Notes: generated from the sequence alone by a model not told the origin. DNA of 32,384 nucleotides from Candidatus Helarchaeota archaeon (GCA_029838215.1 JALGVI010000031.1:1-32384), one strand, 5' to 3'; counted from the stretch's first letter, positions 13,874-32,384 are shown. Translations and numbers: made by a program.

Positions 13874-14428
13874 GTGGAATGTAATAGGAACAAGGGAACT
13901 CATTTTAAAATCGAATCCGGCATTTTAGAGGCAAAAAAATTGATTGAAAACGTTTCAATTATCCTAAACTCAGGTCAAATGCTCTATAATGAAAATTTCA
14001 AAGATCAAGGCGGAGAAATAAGCGATAAGGATTTTCTAATTTCGGGATTACTGAGTGCTTTATCAAACCTAGCCAAGGAAGCATTTGGTGAGAAAATAGA
14101 AGAGATCATTCTTCAAAATCAAAAAATCTTCGTTAAATCATATGAAAAATATTTCATTGCTCTCACTGCTGATATAAGGATTGATCCTGTATATGTAAAA
14201 AATGTTTTAAGGCAGATTCACGAAGTCTTTAGTGAAAGACACGATGTAAGCGAATTCAATGGCGATATTGACGAGTTCAAAAACTTGGCACCCATTATAA
14301 AAAATATTATTGAAGAAAATAAAACAAGAATAATGCGATTAAAAGATAAATATGGAAAAAAATTGCAAGATGAATTAAAAAAACTAGTAACTTTAATGTC
14401 AAAAGAGAATGCATTAGAGAGAGGATGA
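13874..14428 (+). CDS. Longin-domain protein with C-terminal helical extension
   Basis: IILNSGQMLY...LISGLLSALSNLAKEAFGEKIEEIIL...VLRQIHEVF pattern typical of longin folds. The likely start is TTG 13940, by alignment with the paralogue at 29478-29984. Confidence 0.72.
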   Translation: MECNRNKGTHFKIESGILEAKKLIENVSIILNSGQMLYNENFKDQGGEISDKDFLISGLLSALSNLAKEAFGEKIEEIILQNQKIFVKSYEKYFIALTADIRIDPVYVKNVLRQIHEVFSERHDVSEFNGDIDEFKNLAPIIKNIIEENKTRIMRLKDKYGKKLQDELKKLVTLMSKENALERG

Positions 14429-14431
14429 TTC

Positions 14432-15394
14432 ATGAGCGATTTTGTTAAATTGATCATAGTAGGATTGGCAAAAGCGGGAAAAACATCGATCTACAGACGT
14501 TGCCTTGAAAAACATGACTTGAAAGATATCGAAAAAACACCTCCAACAATAATGATTGCTCGGAATACGGTAAACTTGGAACACATTTCAAAACACATCG
14601 CAATTTGGGACTTTGGAGGACAGTCGGGCTTTAGAAGTAATTACCTTCAGAAGCCTGATTATTTTGATAAAACCCGAATCATAATTTTTGTCGTTGATGT
14701 CTTAGCTCCCAAAGATCTCGAAGAAGTAAAAAAATACTTCAATTCAATTCTCCAGATTATCAAAGAATTGAAAAAAGAAAAGGGAATGGAACCTCCAAAG
14801 ATGTACATATTCTTGCATAAATGTGACCCTGAAACCAAGAATCAGAACACGCCAAACATTGCAATGACTCTACTCGAAATGAATACATTATTTGGCAAGG
14901 AAGTCCCGATGTACATGACATCAATTCATGATGATACTGCCTGTAGATCGCTTAATAATATATTATTCTTTTCTCTTCCTGAAGATGCAATCATGCACAT
15001 TTTTAGTGAAAAATTCTTTGAAGAACTTAAAAACGTGATCTTGAAAGAAATAGAGAATAAACCCTTGGATGATATTGAAGGTCTTTCCAAGATCTTTGGC
15101 GATCTTATTGGACAAAAGATTCACGAATTGTGGATGAGCTCTTCCATCAAAAAAGTCGATAGAAGCGAAAAAGAACACAAATTTGTTGAAGGCGTTGAAG
15201 TCATTCAAAAAGATGGAAAAAAGCGCTTTAAATTAAAATGCCAGTTTGCACTAAAAGATCGGAAATGTACTGAACTTGATTGTACACTATTTCTCGAATT
15301 CTTGAAAGGAATTCTAAATTCAATCGGTCTGGGATATCGTAGCCAAGCAATCGAAAAAATAAAAGATGATGACGAATGTTTTTTCATCATATAG
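14432..15394 (+). CDS. Rag/Gtr-like small GTPase fused to a C-terminal V4R/TRAPP-Bet3-like domain
   Basis: GLAKAGKTS, PPT, WDFGGQ, HKCD, TSIHD. The C-terminal part has FGDLIG...KCQF...DCTLFLEFLKGIL...DDECFFII, resembling V4R. Confidence 0.8.
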   Translation: MSDFVKLIIVGLAKAGKTSIYRRCLEKHDLKDIEKTPPTIMIARNTVNLEHISKHIAIWDFGGQSGFRSNYLQKPDYFDKTRIIIFVVDVLAPKDLEEVKKYFNSILQIIKELKKEKGMEPPKMYIFLHKCDPETKNQNTPNIAMTLLEMNTLFGKEVPMYMTSIHDDTACRSLNNILFFSLPEDAIMHIFSEKFFEELKNVILKEIENKPLDDIEGLSKIFGDLIGQKIHELWMSSSIKKVDRSEKEHKFVEGVEVIQKDGKKRFKLKCQFALKDRKCTELDCTLFLEFLKGILNSIGLGYRSQAIEKIKDDDECFFII

Positions 15395-15582
15395 TTTAAT
15401 AATGCATGCTTCTTTATTTGATTAGGGAAGTTATTATTAAAGCAGTTATAGTTGTCTATAGATAAGAAGCGATCTTCTCAATTATTCCCTAAAACTTAAA
15501 TATGAAGACGATTAATTTTAAAATTACTGGACTTTAATCGTTTCCAGATTCAATTCATACGGGTTTGAGGTGACTTCAGACT

Positions 15583-16128
15583 TTGTCTACAATAATGATG
15601 AAGGAAGATCATTTTGGTTTTTACGTGTTTAAAGTGATTTTGGTTGGTGATGCAGCAGTTGGTAAAACAAGTCTCATTAATAAATACGTGTTTAATCAAT
15701 TTGCGGAGGATTATAAAGCATCCATCGGTTCGAATATTATCATCAAGGATCTTGAAACTGATGATGGCAAAAAAGTAAAACTCTCCATCTGGGACATCGC
15801 AGGACAACAAAAATGGGAAGTAATGCGACCCGTGTATTATCAAAGAGCCGATGGCGTTTTACTCATTTACGATGTCACAAATAAGGAATCATACGATAAT
15901 CTGTTTACAACGTGGTACCACGAAATACAAACGATTCATCAGGACTTTAAACTGATGATTTTGGGGAATAAAAGCGACAAGGGAGATCTGAAATTCGAAG
16001 ATGAAAACGCATTAAACGAGAAATTCAATCCCATTAAAATAATTAAAACTTCAGCCAAAAATGGTGAAAACGTGGAAAAAGCTTTTATAGAATTAACAAA
16101 AGCCATGATAGCACCTTTGTACGAGTGA
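15583..16128 (+). CDS. Rab/Ras-like small GTPase
   Basis: GDAAVGKTS, KASIG, WDIAGQ, YYQRADG, NKSD, TSAK. GAGGTGA SD upstream of the TTG start. Confidence 0.93.
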   Translation: MSTIMMKEDHFGFYVFKVILVGDAAVGKTSLINKYVFNQFAEDYKASIGSNIIIKDLETDDGKKVKLSIWDIAGQQKWEVMRPVYYQRADGVLLIYDVTNKESYDNLFTTWYHEIQTIHQDFKLMILGNKSDKGDLKFEDENALNEKFNPIKIIKTSAKNGENVEKAFIELTKAMIAPLYE

Positions 16129-24248: not shown

Positions 24249-24418
24249 GACGGAATCACCGATGATTAACCTTGAATTGAAATCACCTAGAAAAAAACAA
24301 ATCCGTTTTTTTATTTAAAACAAGTTTCAGAAAACTCCTAATTAACATTTGGCAATTTGCAAAGACAAAAATCCTTAAACTTAATATACCGCTTGAGCTA
24401 TTATATGACTTGATTATC

Positions 24419-25393
24419 ATGCCCAAGGGAATTGCAGTAATAACGTGGGATGATCATTTTGGGGCTATGCTAGATTCTATCTATCCTAAAGATCTTGAAA
24501 TCACAAACGATTTAGTCCTTCAGTTATACACTTCACAGACGATGGGAGACATCAGTACTCCGCGTTTTTCCATTTTCCAAACAAAAGAAATTAAAGTCGC
24601 AAGTTATTTTGGCGGGGATAGAAAAAATGCCTTGTTGGTATTTATTTTGGGTGAAGATGAAGAACCTGAAAAATACCAATTGATAGTTATTCAAACATTT
24701 AATGAATACGTTACAAATAATACTGAAACGGATGAATTTTTGGAACGTGCCTTTAAAAAAGTATTGGGAATGGGAGAACTTCTTGGTAGTGCTTCCGTAT
24801 TGGAAAATAGAGTCATTCAAAATTTTTTCTCAAATGTTGTCACGGGTGATGTTCTGAAATTTCTTCCGACGAAGGATTATGAACTGGGTATTTATTATCC
24901 CCTCCTAAGTAAGTATCTAGGAGTCGAACCAACTCAAACTAGTCTGTTCATAGATTATCTTTGCCGACAAGATTTCTTAATTCCAGAGGTAGTTGATTGT
25001 GCACTTGTCTGTCCCCATTGTGGGTCCATAAAACTCTTTAATTTATTGCTCTGCCCAAAATGCAATTCTAAAAAAATGCAAAAAGGACTTACTGCGCAGC
25101 ATAGATTGTGTGGATACGTTAACTTTTATGAGAATTTTTTTGATAAACCCCGAAACCGGCTACACTGTGATAATTGTAACACGTTTATTTCAAATGAAAA
25201 GGATTTGATAAATAAAGGAATTTCATATTATTGCGTGGAATGCAAAGTTTTTACAAAACGTGGAAGAGATTACTTGGAATGTGGCAATTGTTCGAAACTG
25301 ATTAAGCGTGAAGAATTGGTCTTTAAAGAAATTTATGCATATACCGCAAATCTTGAAAAGATTAATCAAATTGTCAAGTTCAAGGAGCGTTAA
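24419..25393 (+). CDS. Longin/uDENN-like N-terminal domain fused to a TackOD1-like multi-zinc-ribbon domain
   Basis: N-terminal IAVITWDDHFGAMLDSIYP. C-terminal CPHC/CPKC/H..CG/CDNC/CVEC/CGNC...ELVFKEIYAY array, recalled as the thaumarchaeal output domain pattern. Confidence 0.68.
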   Translation: MPKGIAVITWDDHFGAMLDSIYPKDLEITNDLVLQLYTSQTMGDISTPRFSIFQTKEIKVASYFGGDRKNALLVFILGEDEEPEKYQLIVIQTFNEYVTNNTETDEFLERAFKKVLGMGELLGSASVLENRVIQNFFSNVVTGDVLKFLPTKDYELGIYYPLLSKYLGVEPTQTSLFIDYLCRQDFLIPEVVDCALVCPHCGSIKLFNLLLCPKCNSKKMQKGLTAQHRLCGYVNFYENFFDKPRNRLHCDNCNTFISNEKDLINKGISYYCVECKVFTKRGRDYLECGNCSKLIKREELVFKEIYAYTANLEKINQIVKFKER

Positions 25394-25397
25394 AGGA

Positions 25398-25910
25398 ATG
25401 GGTGAAACGTATAAAAAGAAAATCGTTTTACTTGGTTCATTTGCCGTAGGAAAGACTGCAATAATGTACAATTTCGTTGAAAACAAATTCATACAAGATT
25501 ATAGAGCCACTATTGGTGTAAACCTGCTGAATAAAATCATAGCTCTGGAGAATGACACGAAGATAAGCTTCACGATTTGGGACATCGCTGGACAACTGGC
25601 TTTCAGACCTGTTTGGCAAAGTTTTTACAATAAAGCAGCCGGAGCCTTACTCATTTATGACGTGACGCGAAAAATGACATACGATGAAATTCCAGGATGG
25701 TATCAAAACTTAGTAGAATTCATACCTGAAAAAATACCTTGTGTCTTAATTGGAAATAAAATAGACTTGATCGAACAAAGAGAAGTTAGCTCCGAGCAGG
25801 GTCTAGAGCTTGCAAGAAATTATGATATGGAATACATGGAAACTTCTGCAAAAACGGGTAAAAATATAATTCAGGCATTTGAACTCATAGGAAGAAAAAC
25901 GTTAAAATGA
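25398..25910 (+). CDS. Rab/Ras-like small GTPase
   Basis: GSFAVGKTA, RATIG, WDIAGQ, NKID, TSAK. The true ATG is at 25398, 4 nt after the upstream stop; the track's 25308 start overlaps the upstream gene. Confidence 0.93.
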   Translation: MGETYKKKIVLLGSFAVGKTAIMYNFVENKFIQDYRATIGVNLLNKIIALENDTKISFTIWDIAGQLAFRPVWQSFYNKAAGALLIYDVTRKMTYDEIPGWYQNLVEFIPEKIPCVLIGNKIDLIEQREVSSEQGLELARNYDMEYMETSAKTGKNIIQAFELIGRKTLK

Positions 25911-25944: not shown

Positions 25945-27195
25945 TCATTCCAGCCTTCTGAATTTCAGGATTTCTTTTATTTCTTCATTTACAGTTCTTC
26001 GTAAGCCCGTGATTTTTTCGGCTTGTGCTTCAACTTCGGTCTTGACTTTCTTTTGTCGTGGCTCCATTGGCATTGTTAATCTGAAGTATTCAATCCATTC
26101 TCGAACGTGTGCCATTTGGTATTCGAGGGTCGTGAATCGATCTTCAATCGACGTGGAAAGACCAATCATCAAGTTAAGAACACGTTCCAGCGTTTGGCCG
26201 AGAGTTTCTTTGTCATATCCCTTGCCCGTTTCCTCTACGCTCAAGAAATTACGTATTTCCTCAACGACTCTTGGATTTTTTCCAAGACTGTTATAGATAC
26301 TGGACTTTAAGATTTCAACTTCAAGATTTTTCTCCGAAAATATCTTCGTGACCTTTTCGGTTAGAAATTCAATGGCTTCAACAATTTCCTTTCGATCCTT
26401 TACATCAGGATCATATTTATGAAGCAGGACTAAAAATCCAGGTTTTTCCTTCAAAGTATCAAGGGCATTCAAGACGTTTTTGAGATATTCTAATGATTTA
26501 TCAAAAACATCAGGATCTTGGACATCAATGACGTATATTAGAAATTGTACCTCTAAAAAGAAGCGTTCAGGATCATCTAGATATTGATCTCGATATCGAT
26601 CCTGTCCGCCCATATCCCAAATGACTAAATCGGTATCCTCACTTGAAAAAAACTCACGATTCACGCCTTTTGTCGGTGGTAATTTGCAAAAAATTTCCAA
26701 ATTGACATTGTTTTGCAAAACATTTAGAATGGATGTTTTTCCGGCATTGCTCAATCCCACAAGTAAGATCTTAGTTGGTTCGGAGCTGATTTCAGGCTTT
26801 GTCGCAACGCTTTTCGTTTCTTTCGCTTGAGTTACCCTTTTCTCACTTCTTTTTGCCTTTTTTTTCTGCTTTTTAGCCTTTTTTACGGGTTTAGGCTTTG
26901 ATGTATCGAGTTTAATGTCCAATTCAGTTACCTTTTTAGCAATTGAGATCCATTCTTCGATTTTTTTGTGTCTGATATCTGCTTTAATGAGATCTTTTAA
27001 CTCAGATGTTCCGATGGCGACCTCTGAAAGACTTTTGATATTCGATACCTTCAGGATTTTTTTAAGTGCAGTTGCTTCTTTTCTTCCAACTTCCGTTAAA
27101 GCAGTTACTGGAAGATCTGCAACAGTTTTTGCTTTTTTACTTGTTTTTGGTATTTTTATCAAATTTTTCAATTCTTCGGGAAGTAAATCACTCAA
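25945..27195 (-). CDS. Rag/Gtr-like GTPase with N-terminal HhH-like domain, Lys-rich linker and C-terminal coiled coil
   Basis: GLSNAGKTS, PPTKG, WDMGGQ, HKYD, SSIY. N-terminal LPVTALTEVGRKEATALKKILKVSNIKSL and linker KPKPVKKAKKQKKKAKR. Confidence 0.85.
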   Translation of the reverse strand: MSDLLPEELKNLIKIPKTSKKAKTVADLPVTALTEVGRKEATALKKILKVSNIKSLSEVAIGTSELKDLIKADIRHKKIEEWISIAKKVTELDIKLDTSKPKPVKKAKKQKKKAKRSEKRVTQAKETKSVATKPEISSEPTKILLVGLSNAGKTSILNVLQNNVNLEIFCKLPPTKGVNREFFSSEDTDLVIWDMGGQDRYRDQYLDDPERFFLEVQFLIYVIDVQDPDVFDKSLEYLKNVLNALDTLKEKPGFLVLLHKYDPDVKDRKEIVEAIEFLTEKVTKIFSEKNLEVEILKSSIYNSLGKNPRVVEEIRNFLSVEETGKGYDKETLGQTLERVLNLMIGLSTSIEDRFTTLEYQMAHVREWIEYFRLTMPMEPRQKKVKTEVEAQAEKITGLRRTVNEEIKEILKFRRLE

Positions 27196-27214
27196 TTCTG
27201 TCCCCCCATTGTTT

Positions 27215-28159
27215 TTATGTAATTAATTTTTTGAAGATCCAATGCATTCCATTGTAGATTCCTTCTCCTGTAACAGCACTTGTCAAATACATGTTCCATT
27301 CTCGATCCTTTATTTTATTCAACTCCAATTCCTTTATGACATTCTTCTTGGATATTGATGTTCCCAAATCTTTCTTGTTTGCTAGAATCAGAAGGGGAAT
27401 TCCTGATGATTCAGGATAGTCTAAAATTCGAAAAAGTTCTTTCTTCGCCTCTACATATCGATCCTTGTCATGGATGTCTATTACAAAAACTAAAACATTC
27501 GGCTCCTTCAGATAATTCCTCCAAGACCTTCTAAAGCCGATTTGCCCGCCAAGATCCCATGCTACTAAATTCACGTTATCCAAAATGAAATTTAATAGGT
27601 TTAAATTGAGCGTTCGATTTGTCTTGACGAATTCATTTCGTCTCAAGCGTTCCAAAATGGAGGTCTTTCCGGCTCGATCTAAACCAAAAACGAATAGTTT
27701 CAACGATTTTTTCTTGGTTATGATGGATTTTGGAAGGACCTTTGAAAAGTTTTGTAATAAATCCTTAATTTCGGCATTTTTCTCATTGATTTCGTCAACA
27801 TCCCCATGTCCCGAGATATGAACGTAAAATCCCTTGAAAATATCTTTCTTGCTCAATAATTCAATTACGAATTCTGCCAGAGGAATGCGAAAAATCTCAC
27901 CGTCAATGTTATCTTCGGAATAGGTGATGGATATGAGGGCCATCTCTTTTTTGCCTCTTGCCCACTCCGATGGGACCTCGAAATAATAGTTAGCGGTCTT
28001 GAAATTGTCAAATGAATGAATGAAGAACTTCTTATTTCCTGCAAAATCAAGAAGCCGAGAAACTTCTTTATCCTGTTCAGACACCTCTTCGTCTTCAGGG
28101 ATCTTACAAAGGATTGATGGGCCTCTTATTCGATGAAAATATGTCAAGAGTATGACCAT
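27215..28159 (-). CDS. Longin/uDENN domain fused to a C-terminal Arf-like GTPase
   Basis: N-terminal ILLTYFHRIRGPSILCKIP...SEWARGKKEMALISI. C-terminal GLDRAGKTS, WDLGGQ..FRRSWRNY, NKKD, TSAVTGEG...MHWI. GAGGTGA SD supports the ATG at 28159. Confidence 0.87.
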   Translation of the reverse strand: MVILLTYFHRIRGPSILCKIPEDEEVSEQDKEVSRLLDFAGNKKFFIHSFDNFKTANYYFEVPSEWARGKKEMALISITYSEDNIDGEIFRIPLAEFVIELLSKKDIFKGFYVHISGHGDVDEINEKNAEIKDLLQNFSKVLPKSIITKKKSLKLFVFGLDRAGKTSILERLRRNEFVKTNRTLNLNLLNFILDNVNLVAWDLGGQIGFRRSWRNYLKEPNVLVFVIDIHDKDRYVEAKKELFRILDYPESSGIPLLILANKKDLGTSISKKNVIKELELNKIKDREWNMYLTSAVTGEGIYNGMHWIFKKLIT

Positions 28160-28180
28160 GTTGTACAGCTCACCTCTCAA

Positions 28181-29401
28181 TTATAGGAAGAAATTCTCCA
28201 ACCATGGATAAAGTTTTTCAGAAAATCCCTTGGTTTCAATGATTTTGTTTTCATCATCCGTGAGAATTCCGATGTAATAATTGTTTTCGAGGATGGGAAC
28301 CCTAAGTATGATGAATGTTTTATCGTCAGGCAAAACGTGGAATGATAACTTATCAGTTTCAAGCTTTCCAATAGCAGCCGTGTTTTCAAGCGTTTGACAA
28401 AACGTAGAAGAAATCATTGTTAGATTATAAAGTCGTTCGAATGCAATATCATCTTCAGAATGGCTCGAGATTTCGAACCCAAATTCATCAATCAGAACGA
28501 TTTGTTCCACGCCAATCTGGTCTCCAAACTCCCGTATGATGCCATTAATGATCTTATCATGGCTAGATATCATGTTTAATCCTTCGGAAAATGCCTTGAA
28601 TATCGTTGATGTCTCAAAAATGCTCGTCTCGAAGATCCTGTACTTTAAATCAGGGAATTTTTCAAGAATCTGTCGAAATTCCAATTTTATTGCAGATGTA
28701 ATCAAGTCAGAAACATCAGGGTCCATTTTATGAAGCAAAACCATTATAATGGGCGTTTCGTTCAGATAATTTATCATTGAAAGAACCTTTTCGAAGTATT
28801 CCAGTGCTTCCAAGTATCGTTCTTTGTCCTGCACGTCAAGCATGAAGTATATAATGTCTGTTTGAACAAAAAAATATTCGGGTTTTTCCAGATATTGCAT
28901 TCTGTAATCCTTCTGACCACCCATATCCCAAATGGAGAATTCGAAGTTATGAAAATGAAAATTTTCTCTTTTTACACCTTTTGTCGGTTTCAGCCCGAGT
29001 ATGGTTTTTGAGAGTCTTCTGAAAGATCCTTTTGGATTATTCCGAATTATTTCTAGAGTTGCAGATTTTCCAGCGTTATCAAGCCCGACCACTAGTATTT
29101 TCTTTCCAGTTATTGCTTCTACTTTAGTTGCCCTTGCTGCAATACGTGCTGCTGCAATCCAACGTTCAAGTTTTCTCAAATCAATTCCTAAATCTGAAGG
29201 TAAATTCTTCAAATCCACGTCTGCCAAATTTGCAATGGTCTTTACATTCAGTTTTTCATCCAAGTTAAATGCATCGCCCTTGTCAACGTCTTTAAGTGTC
29301 CAGACAGGTAGGTTCAAGAGCTCTTTAATGGTTTTTGGTTCTTTTGGAACGTCTATTATGGAAGAAAGTTGTTTTAAAATATATTTTGTTGAATCATTCA
29401 T
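28181..29401 (-). CDS. Rag/Gtr-like GTPase with N-terminal HhH-like domain and C-terminal roadblock-like domain
   Basis: GLDNAGKS, KPTKG, WDMGGQ, HKMD (as in RagA/Gtr1), TSIFE. The C-terminal GVEQIVLIDEFGFEISS fits a roadblock pattern. Confidence 0.87.
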   Translation of the reverse strand: MNDSTKYILKQLSSIIDVPKEPKTIKELLNLPVWTLKDVDKGDAFNLDEKLNVKTIANLADVDLKNLPSDLGIDLRKLERWIAAARIAARATKVEAITGKKILVVGLDNAGKSATLEIIRNNPKGSFRRLSKTILGLKPTKGVKRENFHFHNFEFSIWDMGGQKDYRMQYLEKPEYFFVQTDIIYFMLDVQDKERYLEALEYFEKVLSMINYLNETPIIMVLLHKMDPDVSDLITSAIKLEFRQILEKFPDLKYRIFETSIFETSTIFKAFSEGLNMISSHDKIINGIIREFGDQIGVEQIVLIDEFGFEISSHSEDDIAFERLYNLTMISSTFCQTLENTAAIGKLETDKLSFHVLPDDKTFIILRVPILENNYYIGILTDDENKIIETKGFSEKLYPWLENFFL

Positions 29402-29477
29402 GATTTATCCCCCGTTTTATGATATCGAATTTTTTTTCTTCTTAATTTATTGAAGATAATTCATTTTACCTCCATTT

Positions 29478-29984
29478 CTAATTATCCCAGGAAATCCACT
29501 CCCGAGTTTTCGTATTGGGAAATTTTGTAAACTTGAATAGCCGTTTAACCTCTGTTTCTAAAGCGGATTTATATTTATCATGCAATTTCATGTAATTGGA
29601 CTTATGCTTGTTGATGATTTTTTCAATCTCTGGAGCGAATTCATGAAAATCACTAATTCGATTAGTATTGAGCTTGCTTGCAAATCTTTCATTAAATGTT
29701 CGTGAGATTTCGCTTAATATTTTGGTAATGAAACGGCGATCCGCTTCAATAGACGCAACGACCGCAACAAAATATTCGTTGAAAAACTTCAAGGTAATTC
29801 TTTTATTCTGAAGTATGATTTCTTTGATTTTTTCACCCATTGTCTCTCGAATTATGGAAGACAAGGTACTCAACAAACTTGAAGTAAGGAATTCCTTGTT
29901 ATTGAAACCCGATGAGACATTCTTTAAAGGATAGCTATACATGAGAACACCTGAATATCGTATAATATAGATTTCGCTTATCAC
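29478..29984 (-). CDS. Longin-domain protein (paralogue of 13874-14428)
   Basis: YIIRYSGVLMY...LTSSLLSTLS...GEKIKEIILQNKRI...ILSEISRTF. The GTG start overlaps the upstream stop (ATGTGA). Confidence 0.75.
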   Translation of the reverse strand: MISEIYIIRYSGVLMYSYPLKNVSSGFNNKEFLTSSLLSTLSSIIRETMGEKIKEIILQNKRITLKFFNEYFVAVVASIEADRRFITKILSEISRTFNERFASKLNTNRISDFHEFAPEIEKIINKHKSNYMKLHDKYKSALETEVKRLFKFTKFPNTKTREWISWDN

Positions 29985-30904
29985 ATGATTTCTCCTTCAT
30001 TTATGGGTATTTCATCAAAAACTACGGGTTTGGAAAGAATGCCAAAGATTTTATTCCAATAAGTTTCTATTTCCCAACTTTCATTCAGCTTGATTTTCTC
30101 GGAAACTTCTTCTAGGCATTTTTTAACTTGTAATGACTCGAAATAATTGATCATTGGCGCAATGACGGCTAACATGAATCTGCGGTGTCCGCCTCGAACA
30201 TCTTTATCAGGAACTGAGTCGAAATAGATATATCCATATTTATTGATGTTTTCAATCGGCAGGAGAAGACCTTGAGCCTTTTGCAAGTTTTGCTGCCCGT
30301 ATATTGAAGCAGTAGCAATGAAGAGTTGAGTCCCGATATTTTGAATGGAGCTTGGAAGACCCACATTAACGGGATGACATTTCTCCAATTTAGGACCAAT
30401 GGCTTCATCCCAATTAAAGAATGCTACAAAAACTTGAGATTTTTCTTTTGATGAAATCGATGGTTGTGAAGAAATCCCGAGAGATGCCATTTTTTGGCTG
30501 ATATTTCTCGCAATCGACATTATTTTGTGTTTTCGGGAGATTTTGCCCGCAATGGTCGCAAGCAAGTCCTCTTCTTTAAATGGCTTGGTTAAGTAATCAT
30601 CAATTCCGAGCAACTTGCCTATCCGAATGTCGTCAGGAGTCGCGCGGGCAGTCAGAAAAATAAATGGAATCTGATTCCACCTAATATTTTCAGAAACCGT
30701 TTTGAAGAATTCATACCCGTCCATCTCGGGCATCATTATATCGCTAATGATGAGATCCGGGAGTTGTTCCAGTTCATTAAGCTTTTTTAATGCCATTTTT
30801 CCGTTTAATGCTGTAATAACTTCATAGTCGTTAAATTCAAGCGTGACCCTGATATTTAATGCAACACCCGGATTATCTTCAACAACCATTATCAGTGGTT
30901 TCAT
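29981..30904 (-). CDS. Response regulator receiver domain fused to a longin/uDENN output domain
   Basis: VVED, IISDIMMP (phospho-Asp), FLTA and LTKPF are all intact. C-terminal FFNWDEAIGPKLEKCHP...PDKDVRGGHRRFMLAVI. GAGGT SD upstream. Confidence 0.9.
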   Translation of the reverse strand: MKPLIMVVEDNPGVALNIRVTLEFNDYEVITALNGKMALKKLNELEQLPDLIISDIMMPEMDGYEFFKTVSENIRWNQIPFIFLTARATPDDIRIGKLLGIDDYLTKPFKEEDLLATIAGKISRKHKIMSIARNISQKMASLGISSQPSISSKEKSQVFVAFFNWDEAIGPKLEKCHPVNVGLPSSIQNIGTQLFIATASIYGQQNLQKAQGLLLPIENINKYGYIYFDSVPDKDVRGGHRRFMLAVIAPMINYFESLQVKKCLEEVSEKIKLNESWEIETYWNKIFGILSKPVVFDEIPINEGEIM

Positions 30905-30947
30905 GCCCCGTACCTCAACAAAGAAATTGTTTTTCTACTCACTTAGG

Positions 30948-32384
30948 TTATATTGGAGGTTTGTCCAGTTTTGGAAGGAAAACTGAAAAGATAGAACCTT
31001 TCCCAAGTTCACTTTGTACGAAAATTTTGCCGCAATGGAGCTTGGCTAACTCTTGGGCGATGGGTAAACCTAAACCAGTCCCTGGGATTTCTGATACATC
31101 TTTGCACCGATAAAATCGCTCAAATATGTAAGGTAATTCATCTTCTCGTATTCCCATTCCATTATCAATAACTTGGATAAGAACTCCATCTAAGTTTTCT
31201 TTGTTATATTCTCCTAGATACATGTCAATAACATTAATAATAATCTTACTATTATTTGGTGAATATTTAATGGCATTATCAATTAATATTCTAAAAATCT
31301 GAGATATTTTGTGCGAATCACCCTGTAAATAAATGCTCTCATTAAGTTCTAACACGATTCTGACATTATTTTTTTGTCTCTTCGGCTCCAATTGCGTTAA
31401 GACTCTTGTGATAAGATCTAAAATGTCATACCGTTTCCATTCAAATTTTATCCTTTTTTCATCAATACTGGAAATGACAAGAAGATCTTCTATTATTTCG
31501 GTTAATATATCCGCATTTAAAGTCATTACCTTTAATAATTCACGCTTCAAACCTTCAGTCATTCGATCTTTATATTTATTCAAGTTACTAAGGGATTGAT
31601 GGATAACAGATATTGGAGTACGTAATTCGTGAGAAACGGTCGATACAAATTGCTTTCTCAAATTATCGAATTCAACAAAAGATGTAACATCGTGTAAGAT
31701 GACAATTGTATTTGGCTCATCATCACCTGTAAGCTTCAATTTTTTAAAATCAAGCTGTAAATGATATCCACGCAAGGGTTCTATTGTTGTAGTTTTAGGT
31801 GTATTCGACCCGATCTGGTTTTTGATTTCTTTAAATAAACGGCTATTCGAAATTTCTAAGATATTAATATCATCGGGTAATTCTTGCTTAAAAATTTTCT
31901 TGTAAATTTCAAGAAAGGTCTTATTTGACATTATTATTTGTCCGCTCTTGTTGATTACAAATATGCCATCGGGGATCGTTTCTAAAATTGCTTCAATTCG
32001 TTCTTTTTCTTTAGCTTCTCTCAATCGTAATTCTGCTTCTCTTTTTTCTGTAACGTCCAGAATAGTTACTAAAATGGCTTCTTCTCCTTTATAATGAATG
32101 ATTTTTGCATAAGCCTCAAACCATTTAACATCCCCAGAGCCCGAAATGGTTCTCCGAAATGGTTCTGTATGAAATATGTTGGAGCCTTTCCTTCATCTTT
32201 GATATGGAATGGGAAAATAATATATTGAGTACATGCTCCCTGTCATCGGGATGGATGATTTCAATAAACTTGTCTCTTGACCAAGTCATTATTTCTTCAA
32301 TAGAATGGTCGAAGTATTTAGATATCACCTCGTTTAAGTATTTAACACGACCACCTTGAATGATGATGACTCCAAGTATCGCCT
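30948..32384 (-). pseudogene. PAS-domain sensor histidine kinase, 5'-truncated by the window and frameshifted at 32141-32166
   Basis: H-box VSHELRTP, N-box IDNAIKYS, DNGMGI, GTGLGL. The PAS C-terminal half (GDVKWFEAY...ILDVTEKR) is in frame upstream of 32024. The PAS N-terminal half (IIHPDDRE) is in another frame that stays open to the window end. Confidence 0.88.
32141..32166. repeat. Perfect 13-bp tandem duplication CCGAAATGGTTCT x2
   Basis: Read directly. Removing one copy restores ...HISYRTISGSGDVKWFE... as a continuous frame. Confidence 0.95.

Follow-up and report, generated by a model that had tools for sequence, protein, structure and literature searches.

What does a two-component response regulator control when its output domain is a longin and its gene is followed by those of Rag-like and Arf-like GTPases? 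This question is raised by six genes at one end of a contig from a Candidatus Helarchaeota archaeon. The window, i.e., the whole stretch of DNA analysed, is the entire contig C83 of 32,384 bp, which belongs to a metagenome-assembled genome (G000; 3.62 Mb, 170 contigs, 94% complete). Homologues of its proteins carry the labels Helarchaeales, Helarchaeota, Lokiarchaeota or Promethearchaeota, as expected for an Asgard archaeon of the Lokiarchaeia/Helarchaeales type. The genes encode a histidine kinase, a receiver (REC)-longin regulator, a classical longin, two Rag-like GTPases and an Arf-like GTPase fusion (Table 1). As the best overall explanation, held with somewhat more confidence than doubt, we propose that they form a signalling operon in which the kinase acts through the REC-longin protein to control the Rag-/Arf-like GTPases. 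A functional module of kinase, longin and GTPases is well supported, because of the longin fold of the regulator, the recurring gene order and the linkage of GTPase and kinase genes to the regulator across its family.

Table 1. Features of the window discussed in the text, with the basis of each assignment.
Feature	Position	Strand	Basis or remark
Sensor kinase gene, 5' part (PAS domain)	32125..32382	-	5'-open reading frame reaching the contig end; in frame with the kinase reading frame once either of the two 13-bp repeat copies is discounted
13-bp exact tandem duplication (AGAACCATTTCGG x2), shifts the kinase frame	32141..32166	-	
Histidine kinase, 3' reading frame (358 aa): PAS, HisKA, HATPase_c	30948..32024	-	Pfam
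Response regulator: REC and C-terminal longin (residues ~155-295)	29981..30904	-	Pfam REC, AlphaFold model, structure matches
Classical longin, 168 aa, 4-nt overlap with the regulator gene	29478..29984	-	AlphaFold model, structure matches
Rag/Gtr1-like GTPase, 406 aa: HhH-like N-domain, G domain, roadblock-like C-domain	28181..29401	-	Pfam, PDB matches
GP/Arg-motif domain (probable longin) and Arf-like GTPase fusion, 321 aa	27215..28159	-	Pfam Arf; fusion conserved among homologues (alignments A7 and A8)
Second Rag-like GTPase, 416 aa: HhH-like N-domain, Lys-rich linker, G domain, C-tail	25945..27195	-	Pfam, PDB matches
Longin-like N-domain and TackOD1 zinc-ribbon protein, convergent neighbour	24410..25393	+	TackOD1 2.9e-19

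A longin as the output domain of the regulator

The receiver of the regulator is matched by the Pfam model Response_reg (2.9e-24, residues 5-118) and has the acidic pair (E9, D10), the phospho-acceptor D55 and the Thr and Lys (T85 and K107) of receivers, while a Pfam scan of the full-length protein found no match for residues 130-307. The C-terminal domain was modelled with AlphaFold from an alignment of 16 homologues (A2). The model (predicted local distance difference test, pLDDT, 84.9) has the element order b-b-a-b-b-b-a-a, which is that of longins. The top PDB matches in Foldseek were GATOR1 chains, DENND10, chains of FLCN complexes, a Lokiarchaeota longin (8yqg), Lst4 and DENND1. In a Foldseek-independent (VIA) search, the Lst4 longin (Z 12.7), 8yqg (11.4), the folliculin complex chain 6nzd_H (11.1), C9orf72-SMCR8 (10.9) and GATOR1/SEA chains (10.0) were all ranked above TRAPP, VAMP7 and roadblock proteins. 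Moreover, the nearest ESM Atlas models include Heimdallarchaeota proteins (23% with Folliculin), SMCR8 of eukaryotes and Avl9/uDENN proteins. Also among them is a cluster of 341-aa Arf proteins from Promethearchaeota, whose alignment with the regulator longin model spans 142 residues. The fold search shows the modelled output to be a longin domain of the FLCN/NPRL2/C9orf72 kind and not a DNA-binding domain. This bears out the longin output that an earlier note on this DNA, made from the sequence alone, had assigned to the regulator.

The profile of the regulator family could be aligned with the human C9orf72 longin over its full length (E 0.03), placing WDxxxGP opposite WDNILGP. In the model, W165-D166 and G170-P171 are found at the beta1-beta2 turn, with the same W-D-x3-G-P spacing as in C9orf72 (W33-D34 and G38-P39), and the W, G and P of this motif are invariant across the 16 homologues. 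An arginine, R237 (codon 30194-30196), lies in the beta4-beta5 loop; it is present in all REC-longin rows of alignment A1, as well as in L072 and L078, and is deleted in the PAS-longin proteins P0016 and P0017. W33-D34 of C9orf72 and R147 of SMCR8 have been found to be essential, and the GP motif has been described as specific to longins of the GTPase-activating protein (GAP) type, being missing from the longins of DENN, TRAPP and adaptin proteins (PMC12290439).

When the isolated regulator longins were searched against Pfam, no DENN, Folliculin or NPR2 match rose above threshold, and a sub-threshold Folliculin match was obtained in 4 of the 16 (best E 0.014). The regulator terminates ~10 residues past the longin helices, without a DENN or family-specific C-terminal domain. 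Because no such domain follows the longin, the regulator domain is a longin of the GAP-complex type and the protein is not a full homologue of FLCN, SMCR8 or NPRL2. The label 'longin/uDENN' given earlier is therefore right for a longin of the FLCN/DENN type but wrong for a DENN core.

Longins of the regulator type and GP/Arg domains also occur in other fusions (L010, L042, L043, L071; P0016, P0017, P0046). These include proteins of 560 aa and 693 aa, and a GP/Arg domain fused to CBS domains. The PAS-longin fusions lack the loop arginine and have no GTPase neighbours.

The gene preceding the regulator encodes a kinase with PAS_8, HisKA (1.8e-11) and HATPase_c (3.6e-24) matches in Pfam and an H-box, SHELRTP, so that it has both the HisKA and HATPase_c domains of a two-component kinase. 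This reading frame covers the 3' portion of a larger gene with several PAS domains, which is broken by the 13-bp duplication and extends past the contig end. Dropping one copy of the repeat brings an additional upstream PAS domain and the kinase into a single frame. The HisKA/HATPase core 3' of the break is intact, with an in-frame start available. The duplication may reflect a true inactivation, slippage or an assembly error. Thus, the PAS histidine kinase of the earlier note stands as to its domains, but not as a complete gene.

The three GTPases are of two families. Both Rag-like proteins are matched by Gtr1_RagA in Pfam (95.8 bits for the 406-aa and 92.8 bits for the 416-aa protein; cut-off 22), as had been proposed for them, and both have HKxD in G4: the G motifs are GLDNAGKS, WDMGGQ and HKMD in the former, and GLSNAGKT, WDMGGQ and HKYD in the latter. 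The 406-aa protein matches the Asgard Rag-like structure 8yl2 (1e-26) and 9m28/8zla in the PDB. Its alignments cover residues 3-277 (of 321) of S. pombe Gtr1 and 7-245 of RagA, extending into their C-terminal roadblock part, and its own C-terminal domain is accordingly predicted to be roadblock-like. PDB matches of the 416-aa protein are confined to the G domain, and for its C-tail, a coiled coil according to the earlier note, the PDB and Pfam searches gave no match. The two proteins share a homologous N-domain of ~95 residues, for which HHH_5 is found by Pfam in 5 of the 9 family members (best E 1e-08), in line with the helix-hairpin-helix (HhH) domains noted earlier at both N-termini.

The third GTPase is matched by PF00025 (Arf) with 162 bits; the match extends over residues 151-318 and takes in nearly the whole Pfam model (positions 6-173 of 174). 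The protein has the G motifs GLDRAGKT, WDLGGQ and NKKD. An N-terminal membrane-binding amphipathic helix has been named as a defining feature of the Arf family (bioRxiv 10.1101/2024.02.28.582541). Here, a GP/Arg-motif domain of ~150 residues precedes the G domain in place of this helix. Among 11 homologues, G13-P14 after the first strand is nearly invariant, and A67-R68-G69 before a hydrophobic strand is invariant. Language-model features of the stand-alone relatives of this domain are nearest to certain ESM Atlas clusters, whose models match the regulator longin at template modelling (TM) scores of 0.59-0.63. The Atlas feature searches as a whole yielded no more than leads, with Fuz_longin_1 reaching 22% in one cluster and NPR2 19% in a second. 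Pfam gave a sub-threshold Afi1 match in 1 of the 11 homologues (E 0.031), and nothing was matched when the profile was searched against PDB sequences. The domain is probably a longin, judging from its motifs and these relatives. Hence, of the longin-Arf GTPase described earlier, the Arf part is confirmed and the longin fold of the N-domain is indirectly supported, by the Atlas cluster matches.

Between the regulator and the GTPases lies the gene for the 168-aa protein, whose AlphaFold model (pLDDT 77.3) has longin topology and matches the VAMP7 longin (Z 14.9) and chain 7q3d_C of the CPLANE complex (Z 14.7). Its other structural neighbours are Sec22, the AP sigma subunits, TRAPP and Mon1-Ccz1. 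The GP motif is missing from this protein, a Pfam scan gave no match, and a profile-profile comparison with the regulator longin, made with shallow alignments, gave a probability of 2%. The model topology and the VAMP7 match identify the stand-alone longin gene of the earlier note as that of a classical longin. It is likely to serve as a platform for, or a guanine nucleotide exchange factor (GEF)-type partner of, the Rag-like GTPase encoded by the next gene. As it is missing from the closest syntenic contigs described below (L081-L083), we do not regard it as a core part of the module, and for the same reason rejected it as a fixed heterodimer partner of the regulator.

Outside the six genes, a second set on the same theme occupies 13874-16128 on the plus strand: a 184-aa paralogue of this longin (2e-29) is followed after 3 nt by a 320-aa Rag-like GTPase and then by a Rab-like GTPase. 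Longin-then-Rag pairs of this type are also seen in L004, L008 and L085.

Gene order and GTPase linkage across the family

The six open reading frames (ORFs) are co-oriented on the minus strand (25945-32024) and separated by 43, -4, 76, 21 and 19 nt, in agreement with the layout reported in the earlier note. The 21- and 19-nt gaps assume that the fifth gene, that of the Arf fusion, starts at the ATG at 28159; a TTG at 28180 is also open. A purine-rich motif resembling a Shine-Dalgarno sequence is found 5' of every gene in the block. Its sole T-rich, terminator-like tract sits after the last gene, and there is none between the genes.

The order of REC-longin, Rag-like (401-404 aa), longin-Arf (298-314 aa) and second Rag-like (379-395 aa) genes recurs with ~60% identity on three metagenome contigs (L081, L082 and L083), and in L082 the tail of a kinase gene can be seen ahead of the regulator. 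The trio of kinase, REC-longin and 168-aa-type longin is found in L084; in L085 the same trio is followed by Rag-like GTPases. In L003, L004 and L008, the genes after the regulator encode a stand-alone longin of the WD type and a small GTPase, with more Rag-like genes close by. The gene-neighbourhood comparison that had been suggested as a check thus gave a positive answer. The earlier note had named a non-longin output domain and an unconserved gene order as observations that would speak against its proposal; what was found is a longin fold and a conserved order.

Of 400 genomes examined from the phylum, 165 contain members of the regulator family, for the most part in frames of ~300 aa. We surveyed linkage at 38 REC-longin loci from 12 genera, using a window of 3.5 kb for GTPase genes and of 500 bp for kinase genes. 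A small GTPase is encoded within 3.5 kb at 28 of the 38 loci, with 10 of the 12 genera represented, and a kinase lies within 500 bp upstream of the REC-longin gene at 27 of the 38; these counts are reported without a P value because related genomes are not independent. GTPase density reaches 0.117 per kb near REC-longin genes compared to 0.018 per kb in the outer flanks, a 6.6-fold enrichment. Across the whole genome G000 it is 0.017 per kb (63 ORFs in 3.62 Mb).

Elsewhere, in related Asgard genomes, the commonest cassette consists of an ArsR-type winged helix-turn-helix (wHTH) protein (111-130 aa), a Rag-like GTPase (~180 aa, HKFD), a histidine kinase and REC-longin. It resembles the present locus in the regulator family, in the pairing with a kinase and in having a linked GTPase that is Rag-like with HKxD. 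It differs in that here the GTPases come after the regulator and not before it, all three have extra domains (HhH, roadblock or GP/Arg), the block includes an inserted classical longin, and an ArsR gene is missing. This four-gene cassette was recorded at L047-L052, L057, L058, L060, L063, L065, L066, L068, L069, L079 and L080.

How the regulator may act on the GTPases

In our best-supported reading, the locus would encode a His-Asp pathway that uses a longin platform to control Rag-/Arf-like GTPases by protein-protein contact. The cytoplasmic multi-PAS kinase would phosphorylate D55 of the regulator, as suggested by the conserved pairing of their genes, and the output would pass through the longin of FLCN/NPRL2/C9orf72 kind and not through DNA binding. 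Phosphorylation would alter the pairing or docking of this longin, which would in turn determine the nucleotide state of the GTPases, Rag-like and Arf-like, that the downstream genes encode. The longin would most likely work as a GTPase-activating platform, and the GP/Arg-motif domain fused to the Arf-like GTPase may complete the pocket, in the way that SMCR8 complements C9orf72.

GAP activity is what we infer by analogy. A GAP role is favoured because the regulator has the WD/GP motifs that are essential in C9orf72, because R237 is placed in the beta4-beta5 loop, and because the closest structures are longins of GAP complexes. We put forward only tentatively, as a rather doubtful refinement, a phosphorylation-gated GAP in which the regulator longin would pair with the SMCR8-like GP/Arg domain of the Arf fusion and would also act on both HhH-Rag proteins. 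If true, such an operon would be an extant prokaryotic equivalent of the switches built on C9orf72-SMCR8, FLCN and GATOR1, in which inputs of the TOR pathway are replaced by a His-Asp input. A complex prediction for the full longin-Arf fusion (A7) and the regulator longin (A2), run without controls, scored 0.01 against a mark of 0.32, which speaks neither for nor against their pairing.

The regulator longin could instead be a GEF, a scaffold or an effector platform, the phosphorylated regulator recruiting or releasing the GTPases; in a variant, control would be reversed, with a GTP-bound GTPase binding the longin and modulating the phosphorelay. We consider this possible but on the whole unlikely. 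Most GTPase partners with longin or roadblock folds are GEFs or platforms (DENN, Mon1-Ccz1, TRAPP, Ragulator), and folds of this type also rank high in the structure searches made with the regulator longin and the 168-aa longin. Moreover, the ArsR-type protein that heads the commonest cassette elsewhere could be the true transcriptional output. In Myxococcus, RomR/RomX has been reinterpreted as an effector and not a GEF (PMC13408092). Against this, the regulator has the GP motif reported as specific to GAP longins (PMC12290439), together with WD and the loop arginine, and its top structural matches are to GAP-complex longins.

Alternatively, there would be no functional coupling in this genome, the two-component pair merely lying beside a GTPase-rich island, in a module that may be decaying. 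The GTPase-rich character of this 32-kb contig, the kinase frameshifted by the 13-bp duplication and the REC-longin loci without a GTPase nearby (L006/L045, L044, L046, L053, L059 and L061) would all fit such a situation, as would the report that MK-D1 GTPases are generally outside operons with roadblock or longin genes (Tran et al., PMC10933270). However, the same five-gene order is found on three other contigs at ~60% identity, GTPase genes are enriched 6.6-fold near REC-longin genes with 10 of 12 genera represented, and the gaps of the block are tight or overlapping, with no terminator-like tract inside it. The remaining genes are all intact, as is the kinase core past the break with its in-frame start. 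Mere neighbourhood is disfavoured because the synteny is conserved, and we regard it as improbable.

Several points weigh against the operon reading as we have set it out. This contig holds 9 of the 63 small-GTPase ORFs of the genome on 0.9% of the assembly, and no other contig has more than 3, so that proximity in this genome alone is weak evidence; the genomes surveyed for linkage are related and thus not independent samples. The kinase gene is frameshifted in this assembly, and the 168-aa longin is missing from the closest syntenic contigs. The regulator lacks DENN and the C-terminal domains of FLCN, SMCR8, C9orf72 and NPRL2. The longin fold of the Arf N-domain rests on indirect matches and not on a model of its own, and the profile-profile comparison of this domain with the regulator longin gave a probability of 1% with shallow alignments (Neff 2.6), although at such depth low probabilities do not by themselves exclude homology. 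In addition, GEFs are commoner than GAPs among longin platforms. What the data show directly are the domains, folds, motifs and conserved gene order, while phosphotransfer, binding and GAP activity, as well as the direction in which control runs, are inferred. The interpretation in the earlier note is thus partly supported, with its direct control of the GTPases by the phosphorelay standing as a hypothesis.

Relation to known systems

In eukaryotes, three longin GAP complexes act on GTPases of the two families found here: C9orf72-SMCR8 on Arf, FLCN-FNIP on RagC/D and GATOR1, through NPRL2-NPRL3, on RagA/B. The longins of these complexes are the best matches to the regulator fold, the W-D-x3-G-P spacing is that of C9orf72, the regulator has an arginine in the beta4-beta5 loop, and the neighbouring genes encode the same two GTPase families, Rag and Arf. 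In contrast, the Helarchaeota regulator has no DENN or other C-terminal domain, has a receiver as input and lacks the setting of a TOR kinase. Of the candidate partner longins, one is fused to its GTPase, and for the archaeal proteins both a heterodimer and GAP activity are hypothetical.

The class of regulator is already in print, so the earlier note's description of a possibly undescribed system cannot be maintained. Liu et al. (bioRxiv 10.1101/2020.10.19.343400; Nature 2021) reported Asgard NPRL2-like longin domains fused to two-component domains, inferred that prokaryotic two-component systems equipped with 'eukaryotic' regulators form the centre of growth or nutrient signalling, and also noted Rag GTPases fused to longin domains. 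Their fusions resemble ours in joining a receiver (or PAS) domain to an NPRL2/FLCN-type longin, with the same signalling reading. Their text names no GTPase partner and places most genes for eukaryotic signature proteins outside conserved neighbourhoods, whereas here the operon that contains the regulator is conserved and also encodes further longins and GTPases of the Rag-like and Arf-like types.

Asgard longins of the FLCN/SMCR8 type with a GP motif and an arginine finger are also known, and whether their partners are Arf-related or Rag GTPases was left as a question (PMC12290439, Traffic 2025). The GP and Arg arrangement is found here both in the regulator output domain and in the N-domain of the Arf fusion. 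At this locus, both kinds of GTPase are encoded next to such longins, and a phosphorelay input is added. Asgard Rag-like GTPases with roadblock domains have been described as well (PMC10933270), and Galperin et al. described TackOD1 and noted that, in Thaumarchaeota, an output domain related to roadblock (NitrOD3) occurs next to receivers.

In bacteria, control of a small GTPase by a phosphorelay, by way of roadblock-type partners, has a precedent in the Frz/RomR/MglA-MglB system of Myxococcus xanthus (PMC13408092, PMC9481161). A His-Asp pathway (Frz) acts there on a Ras-superfamily GTPase via a receiver protein (RomR, with RomX) and proteins of the roadblock/longin superfamily (MglB/MglC). 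In contrast to the present locus, the GTPase is MglA and not Rag or Arf, the roadblock proteins are unfused to the receiver, and no FLCN-type longin appears.

What is new here is the conserved block in which the regulator is followed by two HhH-Rag GTPases and a fusion of a GP/Arg domain to Arf, together with the inserted classical longin. Among the papers available to our literature search, none was found on an operon link between REC-longin and Rag/Arf GTPases, which does not prove that none exists. The three-GTPase block names concrete candidate substrates for the REC-longin regulator and addresses a gap left by two papers, one on longin/two-component fusions and the other asking for the partner GTPases of GP/Arg Asgard longins. 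Since longin, kinase and Rag-/Arf-like GTPases are found in one conserved predicted transcription unit, the question of partners is open to direct tests that need no more than four or five soluble proteins of small size. A positive outcome would mean that longin-based GAP control of Rag/Arf GTPases predates eukaryotes and was first driven by a prokaryotic phosphorelay.

Two further neighbourhoods should be mentioned. On the 604-kb contig of a genome of the same family (L004, 1-2095), a string of kinase, REC-longin and GTPase genes is directly preceded by genes for KaiC-like ATPases and one for KaiB. In the window itself, the TackOD1 protein that converges on the six genes has an N-domain with a WD..G motif and no arginine. 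This domain is weakly matched by the hidden Markov model of the regulator longin (8e-4), and in profile-profile comparison, with shallow alignments, the two reached 29% over the first hairpin only. A Rab-like GTPase follows ~4 nt after the TackOD1 gene (24410-25910, plus strand), and an orthologue of the TackOD1 protein is encoded downstream of the syntenic block in L081.

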